Translations under genes and position numbers: made by a program
In this document: one piece after another, positions 8,232 to 50,269 of the stretch
Layout: every line of letters begins with the position of its first letter
Position numbering within the stretch: position 1 is the stretch's first letter
DNA from: Candidatus Aenigmatarchaeota archaeon
Lineage (GTDB): Archaea; Aenigmatarchaeota; Aenigmatarchaeia; GW2011-AR5
Direction of reading: 5' to 3'
Assembly (NCBI GenBank): GCA_016187335.1
Contig: JACPJW010000001.1
Location: 1-64,000 of the forward strand
Length of the DNA stretch: 64,000 nucleotides
Notes under the pieces: model-generated
The model's database searches: none
The model's input: the letters and a program-made list of their open reading frames with translations, nothing else
Told to the model about the DNA's origin: nothing

Positions 8232-8428
8232 CAAAACCGTTTTGATGCTCAGAAAGCAAAGCTTTCCTTTCTGGCATTGCCAAAATCCCTTGGATTTTGC
8301 GCAATGAAACTTTTCTGATTCCGTTTCCTTGAAGAACGAAGTTCTTCGAGGTCCCAAAGAATCTTCGATTCTTTGAGATGATGAAACTTTTCTGATTCCG
8401 TTTTGATGAAACTTTTCTGAAAAGTTTC
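8232..8428. repeat. Cluster of six short palindromes with 3-nt loops, including copy A of the dispersed element
   Basis: Stems at 8232-8244, 8252-8266, 8281-8299, 8331-8347, 8355-8375, 8408-8428; 23-nt direct repeat ATGAAACTTTTCTGATTCCGTTT at 8304-8326 and 8381-8403. Confidence 0.9.
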
Positions 8429-18042: not shown

Positions 18043-18165
18043 AGCGGAGTGGAGCAGCCTGGAGTGCTCGTCGAGCAACTGGCACGAATGGCCCATAGGC
18101 ATGCTCTAGGATACCCGAAAGCAATTATGCCGGGAAGGTCGGCAGTTCAAATCTGCCCTCCGCTA
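18043..18165 (+). tRNA. Initiator tRNA-Met (CAT) with three introns at 29/30 (18074-18089), 37/38 (18098-18112) and 44/45 (18120-18136)
   Basis: Acceptor AGCGGAG/CTCCGCT (A1-U72), T arm GGCAG-TTCAAAT-CTGCC, three G-C pairs at the base of the anticodon stem; removing 16+15+17 nt gives a 75-nt cloverleaf; each intron fits a strict or relaxed BHB. Confidence 0.9.
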
Positions 18166-49128: not shown

Positions 49129-49181
49129 TTGATCATCTTAATATTCTCAGATTTCAAGTGTTTGCACCTACCCTTTTTATA

Positions 49182-49336
49182 TGCGAGGGGCCGGATTCGA
49201 ACCGACGAAGGCACTAAGCCACTAGGTATCTCACATGAGACCAGATGGCTCCATGGCCTGAACATAGCCTCAGGACCTAAGCTTGGCTTACAGCTGTTAC
49301 CTGATCTAGCCCCTTTGTCCACTCGGGAACCCTCGC
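49182..49336 (-). tRNA. tRNA-Leu (CAG) with introns at 30/31 (49305-49264, 42 nt) and 37/38 (49256-49228, 29 nt); an alternative TAG reading is possible
   Basis: Acceptor GCGAGGG/CCCTCGC-A, type II variable arm GGC-TTAGT-GCC, T arm GTCGG-TTCGAAT-CCGGC; 84-nt mature product; BHB folds for both introns. Confidence 0.85.
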
Positions 49337-49960
49337 TTAAGGCTTTTGAATTATTGCAACAATATCCATCGGGAACAATTTAAACGCTTTATGGCTGCTG
49401 TCAAAGACTCTTAGAACTTTAAAGCCGCTTTCTTCCAGAAGCTTTCTTAGCTCCTTTCTTGAGAAGAAGTAATAGTAACGATGATACTCATTATCTCCTA
49501 TTTTCCACCGCACGAAATCCTCCTTCCTTTTGAAATTAAGCCTTGGCTGGTTCTTGTTCCAGACGCTTATTATTGCTGACGATCCGGGCTTCATTACCCT
49601 CCACATTTCCATTACGGATTTCTTTCTTGGTTCTTCTCCCTCAATCTGGTGGATAACATTTGCCGCGACAACAGCGTCGAAAACATTATCCTTGAACGGC
49701 ATCGCATCTGCACGCGCGACGGCAAAAAAGGCTTTTATTTTTTCCTTAGAGGCTTTTTCCTTAGCAAGTTTGATCATTTTCTCTGCAAAATCAAAACCCA
49801 CATATTTTTTCCCTTTGATCATGTGTCTGCCAGATCCACATCCTAAATCAAGAATCAAGCCTTCTGAATTAGAGATGAAATCCACTATATCTTTATGGGG
49901 CTTTGTCCTCAAGCGATGCCATTCCGGAGCAATAGAATTCCATACTTCCCTTTGTTTCAT
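49337..49960 (-). CDS. Class I SAM-dependent methyltransferase
   Basis: ILDLGCGSGR, GFDFAEKMI, MPFKDNVFDAV; stop codon abuts tRNA-Leu G1. Confidence 0.9.
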   Translation of the reverse strand: MKQREVWNSIAPEWHRLRTKPHKDIVDFISNSEGLILDLGCGSGRHMIKGKKYVGFDFAEKMIKLAKEKASKEKIKAFFAVARADAMPFKDNVFDAVVAANVIHQIEGEEPRKKSVMEMWRVMKPGSSAIISVWNKNQPRLNFKRKEDFVRWKIGDNEYHRYYYFFSRKELRKLLEESGFKVLRVFDSSHKAFKLFPMDIVAIIQKP

Positions 49961-50022: not shown

Positions 50023-50269
50023 GCTCCCGTAGTCTAGCCCGGCAAAGGAGAAACTGCGTTTCTCCCTTTACCCTCTTCCTTTCTGAAAAAGAAGGGAATG
50101 AGGTTACAAGGAGAGAACCGTAGGTTCTTCTCCTGTTAGGATATCGGCCTCTCAGCACCCTTTCTTTTGAAAAAGAAAGTGTGCACGGAAAGAAAACTTC
50201 AGAAAAGCGTGAACGGAAAGAATGGGTGGAAGTTCGCCGAAGACGCGGGTTCAAATCCCGCCGGGAGCA
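50023..50269 (+). tRNA. tRNA-Glu (CTC) with a ~93-nt D-loop intron (about 50045-50137) and an 80-nt intron at 37/38 (50155-50234)
   Basis: Acceptor GCTCCCG/CGGGAGC-A, anticodon arm TCGGC-CT-CTC-AC-GCCGA, T arm GCGGG-TTCAAAT-CCCGC; 74-nt mature product; exact D-loop junction uncertain by 1-2 nt. Confidence 0.88.

Follow-up and report, generated by a model that had tools for sequence, protein, structure and literature searches.

A tRNA-Leu gene with two anticodon cassettes in a Candidatus Aenigmatarchaeota archaeon: a predicted source of two isoacceptors by alternative splicing

Can a single archaeal tRNA gene supply two isoacceptors through alternative splicing of its precursor? The question is raised by a class II tRNA gene of 155 nt (49336..49182, minus strand) in the window, by which we mean the whole stretch of 64,000 nt that was analysed (contig JACPJW010000001.1 of assembly GCA_016187335.1). 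A sequence-only reading of this stretch had described two possible splice paths for the gene, one ending in a CAG and the other in a TAG anticodon, and had proposed that both tRNAs could come from it. The host genome has a size of 1.01 Mb in two contigs, a G+C content of 47% and a completeness score of 90.8%, and its DNA occurs in groundwater metagenomes; a search of sequencing runs for this organism returned DNA runs and no RNA run. Nearly all of its tRNA genes are interrupted, many of them by several introns.

The gene has a 7-bp acceptor stem (GCGAGGG/CCCTCGC), a D arm with the sequence GCGAGGGUUCCCGAGUGGAC..., a 15-nt variable arm, an intact T arm and the discriminator A73, while an insert of 78 nt separates tRNA positions 30 and 38. 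Its parts, named according to the predicted splicing, are the following:

49182..49336, minus strand: whole tRNA-Leu gene, predicted dual-anticodon precursor
49306..49336, minus strand: 5' exon, positions 1-30 (acceptor 5' strand, D arm, first four nucleotides of the anticodon stem)
49308..49311, minus strand: GGCT, positions 25-28, the 5' strand of the central BHB helix, with AGCC (TAG path) or a downstream GGCT (CAG path) as partner
49283..49305, minus strand: intron segment of 23 nt, removed in both paths; it ends in AGCC (49288-49285) and an AA bulge, the 3' splice site before the TAG cassette
49276..49282, minus strand: TAG cassette GCTTAGG, positions 31-37, a 7-nt micro-exon in path 2 and part of an intron in path 1
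49264..49275, minus strand: spacer of 12 nt, whose CCTGA (49274-49270) pairs with TCAGG (49304-49300) and closes the path 1 motif; its GGCT (49269-49266) and an AT bulge form the 3' splice site before the CAG cassette
49257..49263, minus strand: CAG cassette GTTCAGG, positions 31-37, a 7-nt micro-exon in path 1 and part of an intron in path 2
49228..49256, minus strand: canonical 37/38 intron segment of 29 nt, removed in both paths, with the inner helix CATG/CATG; its TGAG (49233-49230) serves both paths as 3' strand of the central helix and, by G-U wobble, pairs with both TTCA and CTTA
49182..49227, minus strand: 3' exon, positions 38-73 (A38, anticodon stem 3' strand, long variable arm, T arm, acceptor 3' strand, A73)
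49378..49390, minus strand: putative promoter with the BRE/TATA-like sequence AAAGCG TTTAAAT, some 45 nt ahead of the mature 5' end, assigned by the archaeal promoter consensus

The BRE/TATA-like box is followed by TTCCCNATGGATATTNTTGC (window 49337-49390, minus strand), and this upstream stretch is kept before the Leu orthologues L031, L041, L032, L033 and L038, which belong to several genera; it may represent a promoter with a conserved 5' leader.

All candidate introns of the gene were enumerated by hand and with scripts, applying the BHB geometry, in which a 4-bp central helix lies between two 3-nt bulges, one on each strand, and each bulge is cut after its second nucleotide. The same register reproduces the ordinary single-intron Leu genes of relatives. 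Two paths were obtained:

Path 1, intron 1 (CAG): 49305-49264, 42 nt; central helix GGCT/GGCT with two G-U pairs; outer helix 2 bp, inner helix 5 bp (TCAGG/CCTGA)
Path 1, intron 2 (CAG): 49256-49228, 29 nt; central helix TTCA/TGAG; outer helix 6 bp, inner helix 5 bp (CATG/CATG)
Path 2, intron 1 (TAG): 49305-49283, 23 nt; central helix GGCT/AGCC, all Watson-Crick, AA in the 3' bulge; outer helix 3 bp, inner helix 1 bp
Path 2, intron 2 (TAG): 49275-49228, 48 nt; central helix CTTA/TGAG; outer helix 6 bp, inner helix 1 bp

The central helix is paired 4/4 and in the correct register in all four candidate introns, and the coordinates and helices that the sequence-only reading had assigned to both paths proved correct throughout. 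The path 1 motifs have the strict hBHBh' form; those of path 2, with inner helices of 1 bp, have the relaxed hBH form and rely on the central and outer helices only. As had been predicted, either path leads to an 84-nt product with a G31-C39 pair, and ARAGORN called the two spliced sequences tRNA-Leu(cag) and tRNA-Leu(tag), each of 84 nt. Both combine the cloverleaf, the long variable arm, A73 and a Leu anticodon of a class II tRNA-Leu, and between positions 23 and 66 the TAG product looks, by eye, the same as the plain Leu(TAG) gene of a relative (G019). Relatives that live in the same water have a Leu(UAG) anticodon arm identical to that of the TAG product.

Standard annotation overlooks or misnames the locus. 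Default ARAGORN and the Rfam gathering search reported no tRNA gene in the window, and the Rfam tRNA model, run over the whole genome, missed the dual gene. When introns were allowed, ARAGORN found the right bounds but called a Met tRNA with one intron. The tRNA sets of DPANN lineages are often predicted incompletely, and single-unit EndAs with an extra loop accompany heavy tRNA gene disruption in this group (PMC5829648). The host has one gene for an EndA of 202 aa, located at about C2:410505-411113 on the minus strand, with both PF02778 and PF01974 present and with the homotetrameric enzyme of M. jannaschii (1a79) as the nearest solved structure, and it also encodes RtcB (528 bits).

For the Leu tRNA genes of the host, pattern searches and BLAST were run, with 20 Leu genes of related genomes as the source of the 5' and 3' exon pieces. 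They revealed four Leu loci, namely the dual gene, Leu(GAG) at C2:254230-254400, Leu(TAA) at C2:161412-161673 (by homology to relatives) and Leu(CAA) at C2:464461-464732 (four introns). Neither BLAST nor patterns detected a second TAG or CAG Leu gene in the two-contig, 90.8%-complete genome, a result whose scope is that of these targeted searches, the BHB-based solver having resolved only about one third of the candidate tRNA genes. A genome scan for a TAG loop upstream of a T arm gave no other class II candidate, BLAST with the 5' and 3' pieces found no separate Leu halves in the host genome, and a host scan for loop pairs differing only at position 34 returned the dual Leu gene and chance pairs only. 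All pieces of the gene lie within 155 nt, not at separate loci with complementary leaders as in split and tri-split tRNAs. In a genome of the same genus (G001, 56% complete), the orthologue of the dual gene is absent from the assembly, and the only extra match was the Leu(GAG) orthologue.

Codon use was taken from 328 long ORFs, where the Leu codons occur at 32.9 (CUG), 21.7 (CUU), 11.7 (CUC), 10.5 (UUG), 6.9 (UUA) and 3.1 (CUA) per 1000. CUG is thus the commonest Leu codon (5413 occurrences) and CUA the rarest (505). The decoding of CUA requires a tRNA with U34, and since CUA is used, a UAG isoacceptor must be encoded somewhere; the sole UAG candidate found in the host genome is the internal cassette of the dual gene. 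The genome had been named as the place to look for a separate tRNA-Leu(TAG), and the searches above detected none among its four Leu loci, with CUA codons in use.

Several other tRNA genes of the host have unusual structures of their own. Leu(TAA) and Leu(CAA) have about four introns each, among them near-identical 52-nt introns at 59/60 in the T loop as well as similar D-loop introns, a resemblance that suggests intron transposition or gene conversion between tRNA genes. Heavily interrupted tRNA genes lie at window positions 18043-18165 and 50023-50269, both on the plus strand, where ARAGORN calls are unreliable, and at 56732-56883 on the minus strand, where the gene is a tRNA-Arg(TCG) with two introns. 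A Pro-like tRNA at C2:580364-580467 adjoins tRNA-Pro(TGG) and has an apparent loop TTAGGGA (A34?) and a 30-nt insert with CTTGGGT; the GCTTAGG at C2:580435 sits in this Pro-like class I tRNA and was rejected as another Leu. Two families of short hairpin repeats, with the rough forms AACTTTT..AAAAGTTNNATCAAAA and CCCTTTT..AAAAGCGNNNACGGAAA, occur both inside tRNA introns and between genes; in the window they lie near 8401, 11115, 11309, 18602, 38724, 50204 and 56836, and the genome has more than 150 such sites. They look like small mobile or structural elements and may seed tRNA introns, but with >150 copies, some of them intergenic, they were rejected as markers of tRNA genes.

In relatives, the two cassettes are kept together. 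A pattern consisting of the TAG cassette, then the CAG cassette and then the 3' stem was searched in 371 genomes of the phylum and matched exactly once per genome in 63 of them, spread over 41 of 170 genera, which is a lower bound, as the strict pattern misses several dual genes already seen; the reversed control pattern had no match in the same 371 genomes. A contig scan of named genomes gave 55 matches, about 50 of them in Candidatus Aenigmatarchaeota or in archaeal metagenome-assembled genomes. In addition, a BLAST search of 40 related genomes with the dual gene picked up orthologues by their conserved 3' half alone, which leaves this sample unbiased with respect to the insert: GCTTAGG and G-YTCAG-R stand in one gene in 12 of the orthologues, and 5 are plain Leu(TAG) genes. 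The conservation of GCTTAGG in relatives, suggested earlier as a check on the proposal, thus holds across 41 genera, where the segment is kept together with the CAG cassette. Related genomes are non-independent samples.

These architectures differ in how the two cassettes are placed. In architecture A, the stem runs on without a break into the TAG loop, and the CAG cassette lies within the 37/38 intron. Architecture B, the form of the host, has both cassettes behind a 30/31 intron piece and was also found in G012, G015 and eleven named metagenome-assembled genomes. In architecture C, the D-arm 3' strand, the anticodon-stem 5' strand and the loop are duplicated in tandem as a direct repeat of 31 nt, with copies that differ at position 34. 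A mirror form occurs in 2 genomes (L146 in G075 and L147 in G078), where the CAG loop joins the stem directly and TAG is the embedded cassette, preceded by TGCG and a bulge; judged from the gene sequences, this shows that either isoacceptor can be the embedded one. One further gene (L030 in G007) has the embedded cassette GCCCAGA, with C33 in place of the near-universal U33, and this cassette may be decaying.

The 4 nt located 6 to 3 nt upstream of the CAG cassette, which the pattern search leaves unconstrained, were compared with tRNA positions 25-28. The helices proposed for the splice sites covary in this in silico check: before the embedded CAG cassette, 27 of 34 distinct genes show four pairs out of four between this strand and positions 25-28, and this holds across four different sequences at these positions:

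Positions 25-28 GGCT: partner AGCC, GGCC or GGCT
Positions 25-28 CGCA: partner TGCG
Positions 25-28 CGCT: partner GGCG
Positions 25-28 GGCC: partner GGCC (before the TAG cassette)

The mean number of pairs was 3.56 in register and fell to 0.8-2.2 when the tested 4 nt were moved by 1-4 nt. Permutation of partners among genes gave on average 9.5 genes at 4/4, and the value of 27 was never reached in 20,000 trials. In genes of architecture B, the strand before the TAG cassette has 4/4 pairs in 7 of 13 genes and 3/4 in 5 of 13. In the embedded-CAG path, the second intron has a central helix that contains a C-A mismatch in many relatives (CTCA vs. TAAG). The covariation argues that the splice site before the embedded cassette is under selection, which is sensible only if this cassette is used.

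The dual gene and the separate genes show a complementary distribution. In G014 and G019, Leu(TAG) and Leu(CAG) are two separate genes that lie in tandem at a distance of 35-240 nt, and a dual gene is absent. Among genomes at least 85% complete, none of the 23 with an intronless stand-alone CAG arm has the dual pattern, and in the 28 dual-pattern genomes of this completeness the CAG arm is found at the dual locus and nowhere else. At a completeness of 90% or more, plain TAG arms occur in G019, G083, G166, G170, G254 and G258, together with a separate CAG arm at another locus in G166, G170, G254 and G258, and no dual-pattern genome has a TAG arm away from the dual locus. In five high-quality dual genomes, the other Leu genes found by BLAST are TAA, CAA and GAG only. 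Within the sensitivity of patterns and BLAST on incomplete metagenome-assembled genomes, those with a dual gene hence have no separate gene for either isoacceptor, and conversely. This complementary distribution is seen again across many families and across different architectures, in relatives that are not independent samples. In G017, which has a plain TAG gene, no CAG gene was detected, and the CAG gene seems to be dispensable in at least this one lineage.

We consider it probable, at roughly 0.75, that both isoacceptors, CAG and UAG, are functionally produced from this single tRNA-Leu gene, a reading built on comparison of gene sequences. The locus has some of the features by which we propose to define a class of dual-anticodon genes, namely two cassettes that are kept in different species and are each preceded by an in-register splice-site strand. 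The earlier suggestion of two isoacceptors from one gene by alternative splicing is in this way supported by comparative genomics, through conservation, covariation and the absence of a separate Leu(TAG) among the four Leu loci found.

Mechanistically, one transcript would carry a shared 5' exon (1-30), a shared 3' exon (38-73) and the mutually exclusive cassettes GCUUAGG and GUUCAGG for positions 31-37. Each cassette would stand behind its own 3' splice site, consisting of a 4-nt strand complementary to positions 25-28 and a 2-nt bulge, and each would pair through positions 32-35 with the one UGAG strand that ends the last intron. With UCAGG/CCUGA closed, positions 25-28 would pair with the second GGCU, and EndA and RtcB would join the CAG cassette; with UCAGG/CCUGA open, the same positions would pair with AGCC (49288-49285), and the UAG cassette would be joined. 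UCAGG/CCUGA is topologically incompatible with the AGCC pairing, so the two folds are mutually exclusive. Once the first intron is out, the anticodon stem could form, and the chosen cassette would build the canonical 37/38 motif together with UGAG, whose G facing position 34 could accept either C34 or U34. By analogy with a known multi-motif precursor, the 37/38 motif is probably cut last; both the order of cuts and the product ratio in the dual precursor are what we infer from these pairings. Archaeal LeuRS reads A73 and the long variable arm and not the anticodon, so both products would be charged with Leu.

Energies were obtained as constrained folds of the precursor:

First motif only: CAG path -59.4 kcal/mol, UAG path -57.7 kcal/mol
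Both motifs: CAG path -50.1 kcal/mol, UAG path -49.5 kcal/mol

Conformers that carry both motifs are thus nearly equal in energy. The choice of the CAG path as the default call, made in the sequence-only reading, appears reasonable given its better inner helices, a first motif lower by 1.7 kcal/mol and CUG as the commonest codon. Of the two products, CAG is probably the more abundant and UAG the lesser, and the modest energy bias to CAG matches the CUG-rich, CUA-poor codon use, as a matter of consistency and not as a test. More speculatively, the competing folds might act as a tunable CAG:UAG switch, in which temperature, ions, modification or a protein that stabilises or melts UCAGG/CCUGA would set the ratio of products, and cassette duplication with a change at position 34 might be a general route to new isoacceptors; we regard this as a tentative idea that leans towards the doubtful. 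If such a switch were real, the cell would regulate its decoding capacity through tRNA splicing.

As a rival reading, only tRNA-Leu(CAG) might be made, with GCTTAGG as a duplication relic or loop filler of the 42-nt intron and with the UAG gene in unassembled DNA, and this would agree with the stronger inner helices of path 1 (5 bp vs. 1 bp), with its lower first motif (-59.4 vs. -57.7 kcal/mol), with a genome scored at 90.8% and with the tandem-duplicate architectures, which show that cassettes arise by duplication. A relic, however, would lose G31, Y32, U33, the Leu anticodon, R37, the 4-nt strand and the 2-nt bulge, all of which are kept in register in 41 genera and several architectures, and the mirror genes of G075 and G078 embed a TAG cassette once more, again behind a perfect TGCG strand. 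Moreover, no dual-gene genome that is at least 90% complete has a separate TAG arm, and shuffled introns yield such a cassette in under 0.5% of trials. We therefore consider the production of tRNA-Leu(CAG) only to be unlikely.

Much less probable still is that both cut patterns occur and that the second product is splicing noise, degraded without a role in decoding. Endonucleases of broad specificity do cut relaxed motifs, but noise would neither maintain the covariation of the splice-site strands nor replace a separate gene in a complementary pattern, and the CUA codons need a U34 tRNA. The notion that the cassette is a chance resemblance draws on the post hoc nature of a search among many intron-rich tRNA genes. 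Against it stand the shuffles of the 42-nt intron, which gave an equally good internal Leu cassette in 174 of 200,000 mononucleotide trials (0.09%) and in 247 of 50,000 dinucleotide trials (0.5%), and it is effectively refuted by phylum-wide conservation with 0 control matches and by the covariation of the splice sites. An assembly artefact is rejected likewise: an independent groundwater study of 2017 has a 314-nt contig that spans 49176-49420 with zero differences, and the identical gene in contigs of two independent studies rules this out.

The cassette pair may have arisen by duplication. GGCT can pair with itself through two G-U pairs, so that a duplicate would at once provide a second splice site ready for use. 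One C/T exchange at position 34 would then suffice for the second isoacceptor, and the separate gene would become redundant. The second cassette of the host gene, GGCT-AT-G-TTCAGG, looks like a decayed copy of the GGCT-AG-G-TTCAGG seen in L074 and L110. Internal duplication of a cassette followed by one change at position 34 might be a general route for the birth of isoacceptors and for the loss of separate genes in reduced archaeal genomes, and tandem genes, internal duplicates and compact cassettes offer a visible evolutionary series.

The production of both tRNAs would break the rule of one gene for one tRNA and add a layer to tRNA biogenesis, would extend alternative splicing to the protein-catalysed BHB system of archaea, acting in cis, and would explain "missing" tRNAs in DPANN annotations. 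The gene also offers a compact substrate of 155 nt for the choice of EndA between competing motifs. The full-text literature that we searched, which excludes most subscription journals, contains no description of alternative tRNA splicing in cis or of archaeal dual-anticodon genes.

Several known systems come close. Archaeal tRNA genes with multiple introns and non-canonical BHB introns are known from Thermoproteales, ARMAN and other DPANN (PMC4033280, PMC4090602, PMC5829648). Relaxed motifs are tolerated in such genes. The dual gene resembles them in its predicted BHB introns at 30/31 and 37/38 and in their expected removal by EndA and RtcB, but where each of the described genes leads to one tRNA, this one has two alternative 3' sites for its first intron and two 5' sites for its second. 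In Nanoarchaeum equitans, one 3' half of tRNA-Glu is common to two 5' halves, and the pieces of the tri-split tRNA-Gly of Caldivirga maquilingensis are swapped "like a jigsaw puzzle" (PMC4033280). There too, an anticodon-bearing piece is exchanged on a common body by BHB joining, giving synonymous isoacceptors, but there each piece has a gene of its own, is transcribed apart and is joined to the others in trans by way of complementary leaders, whereas the dual Leu gene would use alternative folds of one 155-nt gene with one promoter-like element. Pre-tRNAs of Cyanidioschyzon merolae contain several BHB motifs, of which the 37/38 motif is processed last (PMC3978253). This order fits the one proposed here, although each C. 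merolae precursor gives a single product and has no competing motifs. In eukaryotic pre-mRNAs with mutually exclusive cassette exons, one of two tandem cassettes is kept, and competing RNA pairings can make the choice. The likeness to the dual gene is one of analogy only, as those exons are spliceosomal and protein-coding, with no homology to the present system. The chemistry and the motifs are thus already known, and what we did not find described in the literature searched is the choice in cis, in which competing motifs in one transcript of one gene would select one of two micro-exons.
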